NCBI GenBank assembly: GCA_041662125.1
Contig: JBAZTA010000006.1
Coordinates: 5,699-69,698 of the forward strand
Reading direction: 5' to 3'
Length of the DNA stretch: 64,000 bases
Origin: Candidatus Omnitrophota bacterium
Lineage (GTDB): Bacteria; Omnitrophota; Gorgyraeia; Gygaellales; Profunditerraquicolaceae
Each line of letters starts with the position of its first letter. Positions within the stretch are counted from its first letter, which is position 1. Made by a program: the position numbers and the translations under genes. Below the pieces are notes generated by a model that saw only the letters and a program-made list of their open reading frames with translations, searched no databases and had not been told where the DNA came from. This document shows positions 2,501-42,743 of this stretch, one piece after another.

Positions 2501-2701
2501 TTATATTTTGACTACGTTTGTAGCCTGCTCGCCTTTAGGGCCTTTCTCGATTTGAAACTCGACTTGAGCACCCTCATCTAAAGACTTGTAACCTTCACCC
2601 TGAATTGCGCTGTGATGTACGAATACATCGCTGCCATTCTCAGGAGTGATAAATCCATAACCTTTTTGGTTATTGAACCATTTCACTATACCTTTTGCCA
2701 T
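2501..2701 (-). CDS. cspA: cold shock protein, CspA family
   Basis: 66 aa '[33 protein letters not shown]...' with the canonical CSD RNP1/RNP2 motifs. A strong SD (GGAGGAGAGGAGG) lies upstream. Confidence 0.95.
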
Positions 2702-2749
2702 TATTTACTACCTCCTCTCCTCCTAAAATTATAGTAAATAATGACAGAA

Positions 2750-2810
2750 TTAAAAAAAAACGCAAGGTTAGTACTCTAATCCTTGCGGCTTAAGACTTCT
2801 AATCTGTTAT
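2750..2810 (-). promoter_or_regulatory. csp 5'UTR element: conserved box plus hairpin (cold-box-like)
   Basis: On the sense (minus) strand: 'AGATTAGAAGTCTTAAGCCG' followed by hairpin CGCAAGG-attagagtactaa-CCTTGCG. A near-identical box and a covarying hairpin occur in the cspA-3 5'UTR at 40505..40560. Confidence 0.4.
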
Positions 2811-2824
2811 TTACTACAGAACTA

Positions 2825-5167: not shown

Positions 5168-6697
5168 TTAATCGATTTTGCATTTTAATTCAAATTCAAT
5201 GCCACCGTTGTCTCCCTTATTCTTGCTCTCGACCAATTTCACATTACTAAACAACCCTTTTTCTAACGCGAGTATAAAATGGGCAAGTATTTGCTCACCG
5301 TCCTGAGCTACAACAGCCCCTTCCATAGTAATTAAATTATCATTCATTTTAAGATGCGTGATATACGCTTTATCAGGGATCAGGTTTGAAAGTTCGATAA
5401 AAACGTCTTCCCATCGGGGCTCCTCAACCAATATCGCGGATGCGAAGTTCTGCGCTTCTACTTGCTTTAACTGCGGCTGTAAGCTGGAAAGCTCCAGCTT
5501 CGCAACAGAAATCCCTTTCTCGAAATTAGCCAGCTGTATTTTCATACCTATATAGGTGAGGATAAAAATAAGAGCAGCCGTTATTGCGATACTTTCGATG
5601 GTTATCCTCTTAAGCATTCTCCCTGCCTCTTCTTTCATTACAACAGGAAGAAGATTAAGCCCTTTTCCTTCACTTAAAGCCGCACCTATTGATAGCGAAA
5701 ACCGATGCGCATCCTTGCCTCTTTGGCCTATCGCCTCTTGTGCGTCCTTTAAGCCTGTTAACGGATCTCCCAGCCTGACTTCTACGCCTAATCGTTGGGC
5801 CAAGTATTTTATAATATCCCCCAACAAAGCGCCCTCTCCGGAGACAATAACCGAGTCGATCTTGCGCCCCACACCTTCTTCTTTATAATAATCAAAACTT
5901 TTTTCTATTTCGACTGCCAATCGCTCCAAAGGAATACGCGCCATAGAAAGAATCTGCATTGAGGAAATTTCATCACTCCTTTCAGGAGATAAAGTACTCG
6001 TCAAAACTTTAGTAAAATCATATTCTTTGACAGGTATCTTACGATTAAATACAAAATCCTTTCCTTTGCAGACGATTAATTCCGTATCAAATTCTCCTAT
6101 ATCAACAAAACATTGGGTTTCCCCTTCCTTAAAGTAGAGACACTCTGCCAATTTCTGCAATGCGTAAGAAAAAGGAACAAAACAAGACGATTTTACGCCT
6201 GCCTTTTCCAGCAAGGATAAATATTTATTGACTGTTTGCTCGGGGCTTACTGCGACTATTAATTCGTATTTCTTGATGCCGTTCTCAATAATCTCTCCTA
6301 ATATCTCAAAATCGAAAATAAACTGGTCTATCGAGAACGGAAAATAGTTTTTCGATTCTAATTTTACACCTTCACACAGTTCCGCCTTGGGCATGTAAGG
6401 CGCTGTTACTTTTCTTAGTACGGTTTGAGCACAATTAATGCTCACTATGATTTTGGCTTTATGTATATCAATACCTCTTAATAATACCTTTAAAGCCCCT
6501 ATCATTTCCTGCTCATTGACGCCAGCATCCCCGCCAGCCTGTTGAAACTCTTTTAAATCAATCCTAAGCAGATGCAGTCCGTCATCCTTCTTTACGAACT
6601 GCGAAACCTTGATCGCAGAAGAACTGATATCCAGGCCGACAATTAAATCTTTTCTGAATATTCCCATTAAATCCATTTTCTCTACACCTTTAAGCAT
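5168..6697 (-). CDS. pilM: PilM (actin-like ATPase fold) fused to PilN
   Basis: 509 aa. N-terminus 'IVGLDISSSAIKV' is PilM-like. A 'GLNLLPVVMKEEAGR' (PilN INLLP-type motif) plus a TM helix follows at about aa 350. The SD-supported start may be the internal ATG at 6676 (MDLMG...). Confidence 0.75.
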   Translation of the reverse strand: MLKGVEKMDLMGIFRKDLIVGLDISSSAIKVSQFVKKDDGLHLLRIDLKEFQQAGGDAGVNEQEMIGALKVLLRGIDIHKAKIIVSINCAQTVLRKVTAPYMPKAELCEGVKLESKNYFPFSIDQFIFDFEILGEIIENGIKKYELIVAVSPEQTVNKYLSLLEKAGVKSSCFVPFSYALQKLAECLYFKEGETQCFVDIGEFDTELIVCKGKDFVFNRKIPVKEYDFTKVLTSTLSPERSDEISSMQILSMARIPLERLAVEIEKSFDYYKEEGVGRKIDSVIVSGEGALLGDIIKYLAQRLGVEVRLGDPLTGLKDAQEAIGQRGKDAHRFSLSIGAALSEGKGLNLLPVVMKEEAGRMLKRITIESIAITAALIFILTYIGMKIQLANFEKGISVAKLELSSLQPQLKQVEAQNFASAILVEEPRWEDVFIELSNLIPDKAYITHLKMNDNLITMEGAVVAQDGEQILAHFILALEKGLFSNVKLVESKNKGDNGGIEFELKCKID

Positions 6698-36825: not shown

Positions 36826-36950
36826 AAATTAATTATGTGCTATCTCCCCACGGGAGCACTTAACATGGATCATGTAATACACCAGAGACACAGAGAGAAT
36901 TGAAACGAAAAGATTTATTTAGGAGCTTTCTGCTTATGCTTTTTTTCACC

Positions 36951-37012
36951 TTGGCCGAGGTGGACATGGCAATACACTTCGTGATTATAAATACTTAATA
37001 TATGTTTGCAAG
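36951..37012. repeat. conserved ~55-nt element E1, duplicated at 39081..39142
   Basis: 'GTGGACATGGCAATAcacttcgTGATTaTAAATACTTAAtAT' versus 'GTGGACATGGCAATAttcctcaTGATTgTAAATACTTAAgAT'. The 15-nt and 11-nt cores are identical. Both copies are in the same orientation, 130-190 nt upstream of a minus-strand gene start. Confidence 0.55.
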
Positions 37013-37230
37013 AAGAAAATTTACATTTCCTCCCTTTGACTGAAGTCCTTGTTTTCTTCATTTTACGCCCCCTCATCTAATAGTTATACACAGCTACTCT
37101 ATATAATCGCTTCCTGAAAAGCGTGCGCAGAGGGACAAAAATCAAGCGCACAAAAGACGTATTTTATTATTATAGCACGATAAAAAGGATAGGAAACAAT
37201 TCTTTGGTTCGGACGGCCTCTTAAATTCTA

Positions 37231-37269
37231 CCCTAAAAGCAACGCACCCAGCCATTAATGGCTGGGTGC
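37231..37269 (-). terminator. terminator-like hairpin after the zinc-ribbon gene (REP-family stem)
   Basis: GCACCCAGCC-attaat-GGCTGGGTGC, a perfect 10-bp stem, followed on the minus strand by GTTGCTTTTAGGG. Confidence 0.45.
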
Positions 37270-37315
37270 GATATGCCAAGGCTTACTCAATAAACAGCCT
37301 CAATACTACTTTTTT

Positions 37316-37495
37316 TTAACGACCTTCGTTCTTGCGCTTTGAATAACAATCTTTGCAGTATACCGGACGGTCATCACGGGGTTTAAAGGGAACTTCGCAC
37401 TCTTTCTTGCATTCCGAACAAACCGCCTTGTGCATCTCCCGAGCCCCACCGCCAAATCCACCGCCGCCACCACCACCACCGTATTGATATGCCAT
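37316..37495 (-). CDS. 59-aa Gly-rich protein with C-terminal CxxC-x17-CxxC zinc ribbon (absent from the ORF track, below its length cutoff)
   Basis: I translated it myself: MAYQYGGGGGGGGFGGGAREMHKAVCSECKKECEVPFKPRDDRPVYCKDCYSKRKNEGR. AAAGGAGG lies 5 nt upstream of the ATG. Paralogous to 38264..38422. Confidence 0.7.
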   Translation of the reverse strand: MAYQYGGGGGGGGFGGGAREMHKAVCSECKKECEVPFKPRDDRPVYCKDCYSKRKNEGR

Positions 37496-37689
37496 GGTAC
37501 CTCCTTTTTAATTCAGGTTTTGTTTAATGCCGCCCTCATTGGGAGCTAACTCTGAGTCCGCTTGAGGCTGCACCTTCTTATCCAGTTTTCTTTGTTTTTT
37601 TTCTTCCGCCTTCTTTTTCTTTGCCAATTCTATCTGGTACCTCTTATAAGAATAGTTATCTCTTGCCAACATATCCTCCTTTTGTCCGG

Positions 37690-37812
37690 AAGGGACAACA
37701 CTCGCGCAATTCTGCCGCAGCAAGCGGCGTACCCCGCCACACCTATTAGGCGGGGTGCCAATTAGCGCGGATGCGATTAGCGCGGGGTGTATTCGCTGAA
37801 AATACGCCCCCA
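37690..37812. repeat. REP-like hairpin repeat cluster in the csp-2 3' region
   Basis: GCCGC-agcaa-GCGGC, CCCCGCC-acacctatta-GGCGGGG, and GGGGTGTATT-cgctgaaa-AATACGCCCC. Confidence 0.55.
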
Positions 37813-37864
37813 ATTAAAAAGGGCACGCATCTAAAAAGATACGGGCCCCTCATCGATTTCAAAA

Positions 37865-38065
37865 TTATAGCTTGACTACATTCGTAGCCTGTTCGCCTTT
37901 AGGGCCTTGTTCGATATCAAACTCGACCTGGGCGCCTTCAGCTAAAGATTTATAACCCTCACCCTTGATTGCGGAATGATGCACAAAAACATCTTTACCG
38001 TTTTCAGGCGTGATAAATCCATAACCCTTTTGTTCACTGAACCATTTTACTATTCCTTTTGCCAT
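37865..38065 (-). CDS. cspA: cold shock protein, CspA family (second copy)
   Basis: 66 aa, 80% identical to the 2501..2701 product. Confidence 0.95.
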
Positions 38066-38229
38066 TGCTTGTTACCTCCCTTTCCTATTACTTTAAGTAA
38101 ACTGCATAGAAATCCTTATCATCTTTACCTGCTAGACTATAGACTCCTAACGGGGCAAACAATGACAAATAGAAATAGCCGTAAGTTCAGATATCCTGCA
38201 CTCACGGCTATGACCTCTAAACTTTTTAT

Positions 38230-38257
38230 ATTTTACCACTGCTCTTCTGCTTGTCAA
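38230..38257 (-). promoter_or_regulatory. sigma70 promoter of cspA-2
   Basis: Minus strand TTGACA-16nt-TAAAAT. Gives a 5'UTR of about 160 nt containing hairpin AGCCGT-21nt-ACGGCT. Confidence 0.45.
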
Positions 38258-38263
38258 GGAATA

Positions 38264-38422
38264 TTAACGGCCGCTATCTTTTCGCTTTGAGTAACACTCT
38301 TTGCAATAAATTGGACGAGCTCCATTAGGCTTAAAAGGAACTTCGCACTCTTTTTTGCAATCAGAACACACTGCTTTATGCATTTCCCGCGGCTGCCTGC
38401 TAAACCCATCTTGAAACCCCAT
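38264..38422 (-). CDS. 52-aa CxxC-x17-CxxC zinc-ribbon protein (paralogue of 37316..37495)
   Basis: Start trimmed to ATG 38422 (MGFQDGFSRQPREMHKAVCSDCKKECEVPFKPNGARPIYCKECYSKRKDSGR) because AGGAGG lies 8 nt upstream. The ORF track extends it to 71 aa. Confidence 0.65.
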   Translation of the reverse strand: MGFQDGFSRQPREMHKAVCSDCKKECEVPFKPNGARPIYCKECYSKRKDSGR

Positions 38423-38512
38423 TTTGCTTCCTCCTTGTAAATACCTGTCTAAAGGTACTTCGCTAAAATAACTATTCACCTAACATACGTAAAGTTCAAA
38501 ACTAAACGTTGT

Positions 38513-38953
38513 TTATTCACGGCTTTTTCGCTTGTAAGGAAACGGCTTCTTTTTATGTTCAAACCCTCCCCTTGGGCCGTCGTTACGCCTCGCAAAATTA
38601 CGGTCCTGGCTAAAACCACTTTCCCGGGAATCACCAAACGTCTTCCTCTTATGGTCAAATCTCGGGCTTTCTTCACTTGGGCGTTTTCCAAAATGGCGCC
38701 CGCGGTCAAATCTTTTTTCTCCAGAGGCATCACCATGCGCTCTGTCAAAAGGACGGTGAGGGCGGCTGAAAGACCGGAAAGGTTTTGAAAAAGGCCTCTC
38801 GCCTGAAGGCCTGCGTGAAGACTGCTCGAGTAGAATATCTATCTTTTTCTCCAAAGCGGCCAACTGCTGTTGCATTTTCCTGATCAAAGCCACGGCATCC
38901 TGATCATCGGGCTCTACAGGTAAAGAATCTTTATGTTCAAAGTGCTCACTCAT
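38513..38953 (-). CDS. basic Arg/Phe/Asp-rich intrinsically disordered protein with N-terminal coiled coil
   Basis: Start at ATG 38953 (MSEHFEHK...) with AAGGAG 6 nt upstream. Coiled-coil 'ALIRKMQQQLAALEKKIDILLEQ', then RPF/RFD/RHF repeats. Confidence 0.55.
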   Translation of the reverse strand: MSEHFEHKDSLPVEPDDQDAVALIRKMQQQLAALEKKIDILLEQSSRRPSGERPFSKPFRSFSRPHRPFDRAHGDASGEKRFDRGRHFGKRPSEESPRFDHKRKTFGDSRESGFSQDRNFARRNDGPRGGFEHKKKPFPYKRKSRE

Positions 38954-39080
38954 GCATTCTCCTTTTTTACTTATCAAGAATAGTTGCCGGATACACAAAC
39001 CATATATCAATAATTACACAAACGAATTATTGATTCCGCAAACGACAACGATCTTATCTTATTCTCTGAAGTTTGTCATC

Positions 39081-39142
39081 CTGCCCTAAGTGGACATGGC
39101 AATATTCCTCATGATTGTAAATACTTAAGATCTGCTTACAAT
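39081..39142. repeat. conserved element E2 (copy of 36951..37012)
   Basis: See E1. Overlaps the last codons of the 39125..40261 gene. Confidence 0.55.
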
Positions 39143-40261
39143 GTGGGAATCTGCATTTTCTAGATTTTGCTGAGGTTTTAACTTTTTTAATGATACACGC
39201 GTCCCTTCCACAAGCTCGGTAATAAGTTCTTTTACCGAAACAATTTTTTTGATGCGATAGGCATTACTGCCGCACATAGCAAATCCTTTATCCATCTGGC
39301 CGGCAGCTGCATTAAACAAGGCGTTAGCGATACAATAGTTGACCTTTTGATGATCACAGGTAGACAGACATTTGTAAGGGCAACCGAAATCAATACGCTC
39401 GCCGCTTGATATTTTTCTGACAAATTCATTATTGATGACCCTTCCCGGCATTCCTACCGGGCTTTTAATGATCACGATGTCTTCTTTTTTAGCTTTTAAA
39501 TACGCTTCCTTATAACTATAAGCCACATCACATTCATGGGTACAAACAAATCTTGTAGCCATCTGCACAGCGCTTGCCCCTAAACGGATAACCCGAGCAA
39601 TATCTTCCCCGTCAAAAATGCCTCCCGCGGCGACTACCGGGATCTTCGCTCCCTGGCTTTTAAAATCTTTGACTGCCTCTAATACTGTCATCAAAATATT
39701 ATCAAGAAACACGCGCTTCGGGTCTTTAATATCCTCCAAACTATACCCCAAGTGCCCGCCAGCCAAGGGCCCTTCGACCACAATAGCGTCAGGCAAACGG
39801 TTATATTTCTTCTTCCAGACACGGCAGATCAATTGAGCTGCCCTGGCAGAAGAAACAATCGGCACAAGCTTAGTCCGTCTATTCTTAATAAGCGAAGGTA
39901 ATTTAAGCGGCAGGCCTGCTCCAGAAATAATAACATCCACTGACTCCTGCTGCGCGGCATCAACCAAGTCATCATAATTGGTGAGGGCGCACATAATATT
40001 CACCCCAAAAGGCTTATCAGTCATTGTACGAGCCTTCCTGATAGCACTTACAAAGGAGTTGCGCGAACGAGCAGCGTAGTCGCCTGATGAAACAGTAGCA
40101 CCTTCGCCAAGCCCCACAGACGCTATAACGCCCAAGCCGCCCTCATTAGATACCGCGGAAGCCAAACCAGCTGTTGAAACCCGGACACCCATACCACCCT
40201 GAATAATGGGAATCTCAATCCGTATATCCCCGATCATAAAATCTTTGAATTCAATATCCAT
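39125..40261 (-). CDS. nitronate monooxygenase / FMN-dependent 2-nitropropane dioxygenase-family oxidoreductase (FabK-like)
   Basis: 378 aa with 'IIQGGMGVRVS' and a Gly-rich FMN motif. The C-terminus carries an extra Cys-rich segment 'FGCPYKCLSTCDHQKVNYC'. Confidence 0.75.
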   Translation of the reverse strand: MDIEFKDFMIGDIRIEIPIIQGGMGVRVSTAGLASAVSNEGGLGVIASVGLGEGATVSSGDYAARSRNSFVSAIRKARTMTDKPFGVNIMCALTNYDDLVDAAQQESVDVIISGAGLPLKLPSLIKNRRTKLVPIVSSARAAQLICRVWKKKYNRLPDAIVVEGPLAGGHLGYSLEDIKDPKRVFLDNILMTVLEAVKDFKSQGAKIPVVAAGGIFDGEDIARVIRLGASAVQMATRFVCTHECDVAYSYKEAYLKAKKEDIVIIKSPVGMPGRVINNEFVRKISSGERIDFGCPYKCLSTCDHQKVNYCIANALFNAAAGQMDKGFAMCGSNAYRIKKIVSVKELITELVEGTRVSLKKLKPQQNLENADSHIVSRS

Positions 40262-40264
40262 CGT

Positions 40265-40471
40265 CTAGCTAACCGCGATTTTGATATTTATAGCCCGCGG
40301 ACCCTTCGGAGACTGCTCAACCTCAAACTCCACCTGCTGCTCTTCACGTAATTCATCAAACTTTATATCAATGACACTGGACTGATGAAAAAAGATCTCT
40401 CTGCCATCAGTATCATTTATAAAACCGAACCCTCTCTCACGCACAAGTTTCTTGATTTTCCCTGTATGCAT
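40265..40471 (-). CDS. cold shock protein, CspA family (third, divergent copy)
   Basis: 68 aa 'IKKLVRERGFGFINDTDGREIFFHQSSV'. Stop lies 3 nt before the downstream oxidoreductase start. Confidence 0.9.
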   Translation of the reverse strand: MHTGKIKKLVRERGFGFINDTDGREIFFHQSSVIDIKFDELREEQQVEFEVEQSPKGPRAINIKIAVS

Positions 40472-40504
40472 TATACCCCTCCTTCATGATATTCATTAAC
40501 TACA

Positions 40505-40615
40505 AATAAAAAAGACCGCAAAGGTTAGTAGTCATGCCCCTTTACGGCTAAAGATCTTCTAATCTTTTTTTGTACAACTTTATTCAGTATATCATATTCC
40601 TGGGATTTTACAATT
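40505..40615 (-). promoter_or_regulatory. cspA-3 promoter and conserved 5'UTR box plus hairpin
   Basis: Minus strand TTGTAA-16nt-TATACT, then 'AGATTAGAAGATCTTTAGCCG' and hairpin CCGTAAAGG-gcatgactactaa-CCTTTGCGG, which covaries with the cspA-1 UTR hairpin. Confidence 0.4.
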
Positions 40616-41162: not shown

Positions 41163-42743
41163 TCACCTGCGTTGATTACCAGAAAGGTGCTTTTTTGCCT
41201 TTTGTAATCTTTCCAGAAACGCATCTTTTTTGAATTGTGTTGCCCATCGTTTCATGACGATCCATCCTCCAAAACGGATCAAATCATTGCGCCATGGCCT
41301 ATACCATTTTTGCCAGCCTAATTTAATATTATGCAAAAAGAAAACTAATGCGGGGAATGAAACTATATTTAACGCTATCATAAAAACATATTTAAAATGA
41401 TAAAACCTCCCCATAATCTTTCTATTGGAGAACTGCATCTCTTCAGCGGTCATAGGCTCATCAGGCTCAAAAAGCGGGAAATTACCATCATAATATTCCC
41501 AACCGACATCCTGAAACGAATAAAGCCTGTTTTGATCGCCGAGCCTATGCCTTAACTCTGTCCCGGGCAGAGGCGTAGGCAACAAGATCTGTATTGTATC
41601 AATCCTTGCTTTTTTGATGAAGCTCTTAAAACGCTTTATCCTCTGGCTTATCGACATGCTAAAATTCACGCCTTCTTTCATGGGATAACCGAAAATAAAC
41701 ATGCCGTGCACTAAAAACCCGAATTTATGATATATCCTGGTGAGCGCGACCATATCTTCAGGCATGAGATGTTTATTCATAGCCTTGAGCTCTTCTTCAA
41801 TAGGCGACTCAAAACCTATAGCCACTGTGTTGATCCCGGTTTGGCGCATCGCAAAAAGAAGTTCTGGATCTTTAGCTTTATCCAGTCTTATCTGAACGAC
41901 TAAATCCACCCGCGTACCTATACTTTTTTGATAATCTTTTAGCATAACACAGAAGCGTATTGTTTCATCCCTGTGCTGGCCAAAAAGGTCATCAACAATA
42001 AAAAAATGCCTGGCATCATAGGTCTCAACAAGACGGCTGATACATTCAAGCAGGCGTTCAGGAGAAGCATCCCTTGGCTTACCTTTAACCGTGCAAAATT
42101 CGCACTCCATACCACAGCCTCGTATCCTTTCAACAGGATACACGTCAATTTTAGCGTAACGAACCAGGGAAAAATCAGGCGAAGGAAGTTTATTAAAATC
42201 AATGAGGGGCGCTCTTTTAGAAGTATAAACGGGCAAGCCATTTTTAAGATAACCAACACCTTTAACCTCACCTATATCTCGTTTTCCTTCTACGACTAAA
42301 AGAAGCTCTCGTATAGCCTCTTCTCCTTCACCGATAACCACATAGTCGATACCGGCACGCAAGGCCTCAGGTATTGTTTCTTCAACAAAATGCTGCCCGC
42401 CGGCAATAGTGACAATCCCTTTTTTCTTATAAAAACGGGATAGTTCATAAAGCCGAGGGATAGTGCTTGTCAATCCGCCATAAAATCCAACAACATCCGC
42501 AGGCCTCTGAGTTTGTAAAAATTCATGGTCAGCGCCGCCCGAAGCGCCAAGAGGCCCATGCCTGCGAAGATTGTTCTCGTCAATAACCTCGACATCCCAT
42601 CCTTCCATCTCATGGGCCGCGCTTGCAACACATACCGGGCCTAAAGCTGTAGTTTTATTAGCAATATGAGAATAGATGTTAAACGCCGGATAAGCCGGGA
42701 CAATAATTCTTAATCTAAACCTTTTTTTGCATGCATCTAACAT
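41163..42743 (-). CDS. B12-binding domain radical SAM protein with C-terminal TM segment
   Basis: N-terminal cobalamin-binding Rossmann-like domain, radical SAM 'CGMECEFC' (Cx3Cx2C), and a hydrophobic helix 'FMIALNIVSFPALVFFL' near the C-terminus. Confidence 0.8.
   Translation of the reverse strand: MLDACKKRFRLRIIVPAYPAFNIYSHIANKTTALGPVCVASAAHEMEGWDVEVIDENNLRRHGPLGASGGADHEFLQTQRPADVVGFYGGLTSTIPRLYELSRFYKKKGIVTIAGGQHFVEETIPEALRAGIDYVVIGEGEEAIRELLLVVEGKRDIGEVKGVGYLKNGLPVYTSKRAPLIDFNKLPSPDFSLVRYAKIDVYPVERIRGCGMECEFCTVKGKPRDASPERLLECISRLVETYDARHFFIVDDLFGQHRDETIRFCVMLKDYQKSIGTRVDLVVQIRLDKAKDPELLFAMRQTGINTVAIGFESPIEEELKAMNKHLMPEDMVALTRIYHKFGFLVHGMFIFGYPMKEGVNFSMSISQRIKRFKSFIKKARIDTIQILLPTPLPGTELRHRLGDQNRLYSFQDVGWEYYDGNFPLFEPDEPMTAEEMQFSNRKIMGRFYHFKYVFMIALNIVSFPALVFFLHNIKLGWQKWYRPWRNDLIRFGGWIVMKRWATQFKKDAFLERLQKAKKHLSGNQRR

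Follow-up and report, generated by a model that had tools for sequence, protein, structure and literature searches.

Conserved pairs of small zinc proteins and polycationic partners near a cold-shock gene in an Omnitrophota genome

The 64,000-nucleotide stretch of DNA analysed here (the window; Candidatus Omnitrophota bacterium, assembly GCA_041662125.1, contig JBAZTA010000006.1, positions 5,699 to 69,698) carries on its minus strand, from ~40.5 kb down to 36.9 kb, a row of small genes that includes the cold-shock gene csp (Table 1). The conserved units in this row are two gene pairs, ARG→ZR1 and LYS→ZR2, in each of which a tiny zinc protein (ZR) follows a gene for a strongly basic partner. 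The preliminary description of this DNA had listed ARG, ZR1, csp and ZR2 as a co-transcribed set. All four genes lie where it had placed them, each has a Shine-Dalgarno (SD) sequence and each is conserved as a protein, but a fifth gene, LYS, had been overlooked between csp and ZR2. The common direction of the four, all on the minus strand, is correct and carries no weight: nearly every gene-like open reading frame (ORF) of at least 120 aa in the window lies on this strand, and due to this strong bias a shared orientation is uninformative on operon structure.

The small ORFs are real coding genes, as shown by the variability of their codon positions. In all four families, ZR, LYS, ARG and a family of Cys/His proteins (CH), the third codon position is the most variable one, with entropies per codon position of 0.32/0.31/1.24 for ZR, 0.35/0.40/0.88 for LYS and 0.61/0.40/1.18 for the ARG helix. 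The partner proteins are strongly basic throughout, with isoelectric points (pI) of 8.9-10.3.

Judged by their profile scores, ZR1 (66.2 bits for PF23477, 65.9 bits for TIGR04272) and ZR2 (68.8 and 67.9 bits) are true members of the CxxC-x17-CxxC family, for which the curated cut-offs are 27 bits in Pfam (PF23477, zf_Tbcl_2) and 36 bits in NCBIfam (TIGR04272, cxxc_cxxc_Mbark). In the profile search suggested in the preliminary description, the family, which had been presented there as one to be discovered, proved to be catalogued already: Pfam describes it as a “probable treble clef zinc finger” and NCBIfam as a “CxxC-x17-CxxC domain”, and neither assigns a function. The cysteines C19, C22, C40 and C43 of ZR1 and the equivalent residues of ZR2 are invariant in an alignment of 34 homologues, which defines a protein of ~55 aa beginning with M[GA][YF]Q and a Gly-rich run and continuing with PREMHKAxCxxCKKECEVPFKPxxDRPVYCKDC[FY]SKRKxxGR. 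Homologues with intact cysteine spacing, on which the preliminary description had made its proposal depend, are abundant: 453 close ones in a set of 5.8 billion proteins, and 6208 clusters at 50% identity in an exhaustive search. A genome scan gave at least 600 pattern matches, and 598 of those listed encode a ZR relative. The family ranges over Omnitrophota, Auribacterota, Margulisbacteria and Patescibacteria, Woese-, Bathy-, Heimdall- and Aenigmatarchaeota, and Methanomassiliicoccales.

The motif that had been quoted as common to ZR1 and ZR2 is exact. Over the 41 codons of their domains, the two are 80.5% identical as protein and 74.8% identical as DNA; the codons comprise 17 identical ones, 16 with a synonymous and 8 with a non-synonymous difference. 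This excess of synonymous differences points to old paralogues under purifying selection. A recent tandem duplication was considered and rejected on account of the 16 synonymous differences and of the separate partner that belongs to each subtype. The AlphaFold2 model of ZR1 (predicted local distance difference test, pLDDT, 75) contains a β-hairpin with the first CxxC and a C-terminal helix that starts from the second, so that the predicted topology is treble-clef-like. Searches of the PDB with the ZR profile gave no true homologue, the only marginal match being the second LIM finger of a CRP1 chain (E = 0.015). Zinc binding of two Methanosarcina mazei homologues, A00184 and A01980, was determined with inductively coupled plasma mass spectrometry (PMC12704099). 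In the same study the M. mazei homologues were always detected with highest confidence in proteomics, and its authors speculate on a role in transcription (PMC12704099). The N-terminus MAF/MGY is common to ZR1, ZR2 and the Methanosarcina proteins (MAFNDRN… according to the published primer sequences). M. mazei has eight paralogues of this family. For ZR1 and ZR2 themselves, we infer zinc binding by transfer from the Methanosarcina homologues. A search of the literature on PF23477, TIGR04272, zf_Tbcl_2 and cold-adapted methanogens returned nothing on function, and only the zinc-binding paper (PMC12704099) was relevant. Some ZR homologues carry the label “DNA-directed RNA polymerase”, which we rejected as none of the RNA-polymerase models of Pfam or NCBIfam matches.

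Of the two partners, ARG is the larger one, with 21 Arg, 13 Phe and 14 Lys residues and a pI of 10.3. AlphaFold2 predicts a single confident amphipathic helix at residues 17-46 (pLDDT >90), whose hydrophobic residues are spaced in a heptad-like manner, and no secondary structure outside of it (pLDDT ~50), where a putatively disordered Arg/Phe/Lys-rich tail extends. Its family has 143 database members, all named ones being hypothetical proteins of Omnitrophota, and no Pfam domain matches any of them except the ZR domain of fused forms. LYS likewise has 140 database homologues, the named ones again all hypothetical proteins of Omnitrophota, without a Pfam match among them. It begins with (M)ARDNYSYKRYQIELAKKKKAEEKKQRKLDKK…, and the stretch ARDNYSYKKYQKELAxKKKAEEKKQRKL is highly conserved in the ~140 Omnitrophota proteins. 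Since TTGGCAAGAGAT or a close variant is kept 5 nt past GGAGG in 13 of the 17 loci examined, TTG is likely the start codon of LYS. ZR2 starts 12 nt past the LYS stop codon. For LYS, CH and ARG, too, sequence searches of the PDB yielded no true homologue.

The pairing was examined in 80 ZR loci taken from species-representative genomes (numbered L below), in which six-frame ORFs were searched. In 14 of the 80 loci ZR either has ARG as its immediate upstream neighbour or is fused with it, in 13 it is LYS that directly precedes ZR, and when the look-up was centred on ARG, ZR was the immediately next gene in three out of four cases. One locus (L082) repeats the order of the window, csp3–NMO–ARG–ZR, where NMO denotes a nitronate-monooxygenase-like gene (cold-shock domain (CSD)–NMO pair at L082 1479..2826). 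The zinc proteins differ with their partner: an Arg residue stands just before PREMHKA in 8/10 ARG-linked and 0/13 LYS-linked ZRs (Fisher p = 9e-5), and a pure Gly/aromatic tail is present in 13/13 LYS-linked ones. The window holds one ZR of each subtype.

Both parts of a pair also occur within one polypeptide. In natural ARG–ZR fusions (L058, L020, L032, L070, P0354, P0363) the ZR domain is inserted in the disordered part of ARG. The top matches of the exhaustive search are proteins of 150-340 aa with several ZR domains, one of which is named and comes from Patescibacteria; two shorter multi-ZR proteins, from Thermoplasmatota, have neither helix nor tail. Several multi-ZR sequences follow the layout RG/RGG-rich linker – ZR – RG-rich linker – ZR – short helix – Lys-rich tail. 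Their helix, QLxALNxKLDxLI, resembles the ARG helix QQQLxFLEKKIDxLI, and a profile of the latter finds a helix after the ZR repeats in ~28 of 150 multi-ZR proteins. Because of these fusions and single-chain layouts, the window genes, which encode a helix with an Arg-rich tail, a zinc module and a Lys-rich peptide, look like the split form of one modular protein.

For the genomic context, all neighbour ORFs of the 80 loci were clustered and the clusters were named with Pfam. The pairing of csp and zinc-protein genes across genomes, which the preliminary description had proposed to check, is borne out: a Csp gene is a neighbour in 13/80 loci, of which 12 have it on the strand of ZR and 9 have it within 1 kb (p = 1.7e-4 for the distances against a uniform spread, with enrichment judged from the internal distance distribution and from typical gene copy numbers taken from general knowledge, not from random Omnitrophota windows). 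Further neighbours are ABC-F ATPases (14/80 loci), BipA/TypA (7/80), DEAD-box helicases (5/80, plus a truncated copy immediately upstream in L002 and L003), proteins with an RNA recognition motif (RRM; 4/80) and, immediately upstream in one locus of the 80, initiation factor IF-1. At least one of these six kinds of gene lies within 5 kb in 34/80 loci. In E. coli, DEAD-box helicase, BipA, ABC-F, RRM proteins and IF-1 belong to the classic factors for cold shock, RNA or translation. LYS shows a similar context where it stands without ZR: in L087 it immediately precedes csp, with bipA adjacent, and in L086 an RRM gene and a gene with an RF-1 domain are close by.

In archaea, the RNA-related context of ZR is independent of the bacterial one. 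Two loci of Woesearchaeota (L071, 2135..6553, and L057) have the gene order Rrp4–Rrp41–Rrp42–Rpo6–ZR–enolase, in which the first three are exosome genes, ZR is RGG-tailed and Rpo6 corresponds to RpoK. Other archaeal contexts are the orders archease→ZR and alanyl-tRNA synthetase→ZR, and a GTPase of a 50S-ribosome-binding family (Pfam MMR_HSR1) near ZR.

On this basis we hypothesize that ZR, ARG and LYS bind RNA or serve as RNA chaperones, in a common context with Csp, DEAD-box helicases, BipA and ABC-F proteins, a proposition that we regard as evenly balanced between right and wrong. The locus would then bring together separate transcription units for small basic proteins that bind nucleic acids. 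Its core would consist of two modules, each combining a tiny zinc-binding, treble-clef-like protein with a polycationic and largely disordered partner: ARG, with a helix for oligomerisation and an Arg/Phe-rich tail, would belong to ZR1, and the Lys-rich peptide LYS to ZR2. Together, the two pairs would be the split-gene equivalent of the chains with the layout RGG-linker–ZR–RGG-linker–ZR–helix–Lys-tail. The folded zinc module could offer a defined docking surface, the Gly/Arg/Lys-rich tails and the partner proteins could bind RNA by multivalent electrostatic contacts, and the ARG helix probably oligomerises. The setting might be the folding of RNA, the assembly of ribosomes or translation, probably in cells exposed to cold or another stress. 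In this reading RNA would be the ligand, and contact with Csp and induction by cold may come in addition. A wider claim, which we put forward tentatively and think more probably wrong than right, is that ZR, ARG and LYS constitute an unrecognised modular prokaryotic system of RNA chaperones or organisers of ribonucleoproteins. It would consist of a zinc treble-clef “anchor” and detachable polycationic disordered “arms”, encoded as split genes in Omnitrophota or as single chains in Patescibacteria, Thermoplasmatota and Woesearchaeota. Such a system would work with Csp, DEAD-box helicase, BipA and ABC-F in cold- or stress-adapted translation, as a counterpart of the eukaryotic RGG–zinc-finger proteins that is possibly condensate-like.

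Several points weigh against a role in RNA binding. Zinc binding is the sole experimental datum for the family, and direct evidence for RNA binding exists for none of its members. Lys-rich tails of the AKK type are also typical of DNA-binding, histone-like proteins. Foldseek searches with the ZR model gave no significant structural match that would point to a ligand. Among the 83 classified ZR genes in the 80 loci, 50 have neither ARG nor LYS immediately upstream, and neighbours without relation to RNA recur as well: response regulators in 10 loci, B12-binding radical-SAM enzymes in 9, flavodoxin-like proteins (FMN reductases) in 8 and NMO in 6 of the 80. A B12-binding radical-SAM gene lies near ZR in the window, too. 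The recurrence of response regulators, radical-SAM enzymes and flavodoxin-like proteins may simply reflect synteny within the phylum. The same consideration applies to the counts in general, as the loci are all of one phylum, in which conserved synteny inflates the numbers and the occurrences are not independent events. Statistically, the ARG helix resembles that of the multi-ZR proteins weakly (E = 0.002-10 within the set of 150). Finally, the RNA element in the leader of csp, described below, was not found before ZR, ARG or LYS, so that co-regulation with csp is not supported.

Some of the same observations could be explained by proteins that are bound to the ribosome, with ZR, alone or together with LYS or ARG, as an accessory ribosomal protein or as an assembly or hibernation factor instead of a free RNA chaperone. 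ZR would then be of a kind with the many small and basic ribosomal proteins that bind zinc. It is tiny, basic, zinc-binding and extremely conserved, its M. mazei homologues are consistently found in proteomes with highest confidence (PMC12704099), and BipA, ABC-F, IF-1, the RF-1-domain protein and the MMR_HSR1 GTPase among the neighbours act on the ribosome. However, no PDB chain matches in sequence, although many ribosome structures are included in that database, and none of the loci examined has ZR within a ribosomal-protein operon. Several paralogues per genome and tandem forms with RGG linkers would also be unusual for stoichiometric ribosomal proteins, and we consider this explanation unlikely. 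We think it somewhat less probable still that ZR and its partners bind DNA, as nucleoid-associated proteins or transcription factors which compact or regulate DNA and to which Csp would be linked via its binding of single-stranded DNA. The Lys-rich (A/P)KK tails of the multi-ZR proteins do resemble histone-H1-like bacterial DNA binders, and ZR stands beside Rpo6 in Woesearchaeota. Yet the genes that recur nearby have RNA or the ribosome as their target and include none for DNA replication, repair or the nucleoid, and the annotation as polymerase finds no support in the Pfam and NCBIfam models.

The proximity of these genes might also be without functional meaning, if small and highly expressed genes gather in permissive spots, ZR, ARG, LYS and Csp work independently of each other and ZR serves, for example, as a zinc or redox buffer or as an adaptor between proteins. 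A promoter or terminator is predicted for every unit separately, neither the order of the genes nor the partners are constant from genome to genome, and most ZR genes have unrelated upstream neighbours; in sequence, ZR is weakly similar to LIM fingers, which are protein-binding modules. Against this, the natural ARG–ZR fusions and the subtype-specific pairing argue for a joint function, the distances between Csp and ZR are far from uniform (p = 1.7e-4), and the RNA-related context arises independently in archaea. We therefore regard a merely fortuitous neighbourhood as improbable, the most so of the alternatives.

With a role in RNA binding or association with ribosomes, a large and extremely conserved zinc family that has no known function gains a hypothesis that can be tested together with polycationic partners, and the two new partner families and the natural fusions indicate which proteins belong together in such tests. 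If the hypothesis is true, these proteins would be a new class of small prokaryotic RNA-binding proteins, and the combination of RGG-rich regions and zinc fingers would extend beyond eukaryotes. While the CxxC-x17-CxxC domain and Csp are known already, ARG and LYS as families, the way each goes with its own ZR subtype, the relation of split to fused forms and the RNA-related neighbourhood appear to be undescribed according to our literature search.

The product of csp is, by its sequence, a standard CspA-family cold-shock protein. The motifs KGYGFI and VFVHH (RNP1/RNP2) are read in it, and it scores 108.8 bits with the CspE model of NCBIfam, below the cut-off of 120. According to the predicted signals, csp is transcribed separately from the zinc-protein pairs. 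The site TTGACA-16-TG-TAAAAT (38257..38230) was the best in the region in a promoter scan and would give a leader of ~157 nt; the terminator after csp (37850..37818) was picked up in a weaker version by a consensus scan. These two signals contradict the co-transcription of four genes that the preliminary description had assumed. A single four-gene operon was rejected on the grounds of this promoter, this terminator and the arrangement in the closest relative examined (L001), where ZR is separated from csp by a terminator and by a small ORF with a SEC-C motif, and a promoter of its own precedes csp. The SEC-C-type ORF of L001 (~5430..5510, …CPCGSGKKYKKCC…) is a further tiny gene with a zinc motif in that cluster. 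Between ZR1 and the promoter of csp, the window shows no terminator, so that transcription may partly read through. In several LYS–ZR pairs of other genomes, a TATAAT-like sequence was seen by eye, and not by promoter scan, ~45 nt ahead of the start.

The csp leader, predicted to pair with the ribosome-binding site of csp, is a candidate cis-regulatory RNA distinct from the protein pairs. In a consensus fold of six leaders calculated with RNAalifold, the box UGUCAUUGUUUGCCCC pairs with the SD and AUG region. For the csp leader of the window, the duplex energy of this box is -21.6 kcal/mol (z = -2.8), and leaders generally reach about -20 (z about -3). Omnitrophota csp leaders share a U-run hairpin followed by the anti-SD/anti-AUG box UGUCAUUGUUUGCC(CC), complementary to the SD and AUG region, and a compensatory G-C to A-U change distinguishes the long and short leader types. 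A covariance model (R1) built from the six leaders finds five further csp leaders with E < 1e-7. Within the window, the element occurs a second time, and there is a weak match just upstream of csp3 (Table 1). A further standard csp gene lies in the window at 2504..2704. In other loci, the element was found in L001 (5585..5767), L043, L008, L038, L079, L068, L034, L066 and L035. It appears to be lineage-specific, and we propose it as a candidate thermosensor or autoregulatory RNA that would act by sequestration of the ribosome-binding site. It is absent from Rfam: at gathering thresholds, Rfam finds nothing in the whole 64-kb window. The cspA thermoregulator RF01766 aligns end to end from 38234 to 37818 with 43.2 bits (E = 5.5e-9), a score that comes mostly from the coding region and does not reach the gathering threshold of 78 bits. 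By prediction, csp shares with the E. coli CspA system a leader, an own terminator and a potential sequestration of SD and AUG, with the match to RF01766 staying below threshold. In contrast to the window, E. coli cspA has no neighbouring zinc proteins.

Among known systems, TIGR04272/PF23477 proteins including A00184 and A01980 of M. mazei have the same cysteine spacing as ZR1 and ZR2, but the pairing with ARG or LYS and the link to csp were not found in the literature on this family. Lin28, the plant CSDPs (AtCSP, WCSP1) and YB-1 combine a cold-shock domain, a zinc module and Gly/Arg-rich sequence in one polypeptide. They are RNA chaperones or RNA-binding proteins, those of plants with a part in cold acclimation, and carry a CCHC knuckle as zinc module. 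RNA-chaperone activity of archaeal TRAM proteins was examined by complementation of the cold-sensitive E. coli quadruple csp mutant (BX04) and with a transcription anti-termination reporter (PMC5572242). The window holds the same list of parts as the Lin28-type proteins, but in separate genes and separate predicted transcription units. ZR is a C4 finger with a spacing of 17 residues and a predicted treble-clef-like topology, unrelated in sequence to the Lin28-type CCHC (C-x2-C-x4-H-x4-C) and without a zf-CCHC match, and no CSD–ZR fusion was seen in the 80 loci or in the ten multi-ZR representatives whose sequences were read. The Lin28/YB-1 domain grammar invoked in the preliminary description is thus reduced to an analogy.

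The FET family, with FUS, EWS and TAF15, has the layout RGG – C4 zinc finger – RGG, in which the finger is of the RanBP2 type with a spacing of 10 residues. Its architecture is the closest to that of the multi-ZR chains and the ARG–ZR fusions, as a C4 finger is embedded in RG/RGG disorder, but it is not homologous; in the Foldseek list, the only RanBP2-type finger was Nup358 ZnF4, which is not significant (E = 9.4). The second LIM finger of CRP1, CRP2 and MLP has the same spacing C-x2-C-x17-C-x2-C and a …YCkxCYxK motif, and is of the treble-clef type that is predicted for ZR. However, a LIM domain consists of two fingers and is a eukaryotic protein-binding module, while ZR has a single zinc site, and neither Pfam LIM (E = 0.077) nor the CRP1 chain in the PDB (E = 0.015) is a significant match.

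Table 1 Features of the small-gene row and related elements in the window (positions 1 to 64,000).
Feature	Position	Strand	Description
csp3	40265..40471	-	68 aa, divergent cold-shock domain; Pfam CSD 72.8 bits
NMO/FabK-like flavoenzyme	39125..40261	-	378 aa; Pfam NMO 224 bits
CH2	39054..39191	-	~45-aa Cys/His ORF over the 3' end of NMO; phmmer E = 7e-17 against CH1
ARG	38513..38953	-	146 aa; SD AGGAG 5 nt before ATG; predicted helix and Arg/Phe/Lys-rich tail
ZR1	38264..38422	-	52 aa; SD AGGAGG; CxxC-x17-CxxC zinc protein, ARG-linked subtype
Predicted sigma-70-like csp promoter	38230..38257	-	TTGACA, 16 nt, TG-TAAAAT; 11/12 consensus positions
csp leader	38066..38229 (also delimited 38054..38229)	-	U-run hairpin, then box UGUCAUUGUUUGCCCC
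csp	37865..38065	-	66 aa, CspA family; Pfam CSD 101 bits
Intrinsic terminator after csp	37818..37850	-	Aligned to Rfam cspA terminator; hairpin and UUUUU in minimum-free-energy fold
GC-rich structured spacer	37673..37817	-	Between csp terminator and LYS; fold z = -3.2
LYS	37508..37669	-	53 aa, Lys-rich; likely TTG start 5 nt past AGGAGG
ZR2	37316..37495	-	59 aa; SD AGGAGG; Gly8 N-terminal tail; LYS-linked subtype
Strong intrinsic terminator closing the LYS–ZR2 unit	37243..37270	-	12-bp stem, 9 GC pairs, then T-run
CH1	36915..37061	-	48-aa Cys/His protein (…GRKCKFSSCKHILSIYNHEVYCHVHL…), pI 10.1
B12-binding radical-SAM enzyme	41163..42743	-	
Second csp-leader element	2690..2811	-	
Weak csp-leader match	40480..40571	-	28 bits; just upstream of csp3

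Besides the two pairs, the row contains further small genes and one larger one. The third csp at 40265 beside a nitronate-monooxygenase-like gene, noted in the preliminary description, is present as reported: csp3 ends 3 nt before this gene. Its product scores 198 bits with the FabK model TIGR03151, below the cut-off of 453 bits, and the window flavoenzyme is therefore not a FabK equivalog. The ~145-nt GC-rich spacer carries the short repeats CGCGCTAAT and CCCGCCTAAT. Copies of it were found neither elsewhere in the window nor upstream of LYS in other loci, and it was rejected as a repeat element because it is unique in the window and genome-specific; the orthologous positions carry TATAAT-like sequences. 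The CH family comprises small basic Cys/His proteins with the consensus …GRKC[KR]FxxCKxILSIYNHExYCHxHL…, which have no match in Pfam, NCBIfam or the PDB. CH orthologues lie near ZR in 7/80 loci (L001 6345..6523, L002, L004, L006, L009, L050 and L068), or in 8 sources counting the window. In another reading frame, CH2 (…RKCRFPHCKQILSIYNHEEYCHVHL…) runs over the final 67 nt of the NMO gene. It lacks a canonical start codon and may be either a remnant or an ORF that begins at ATT.

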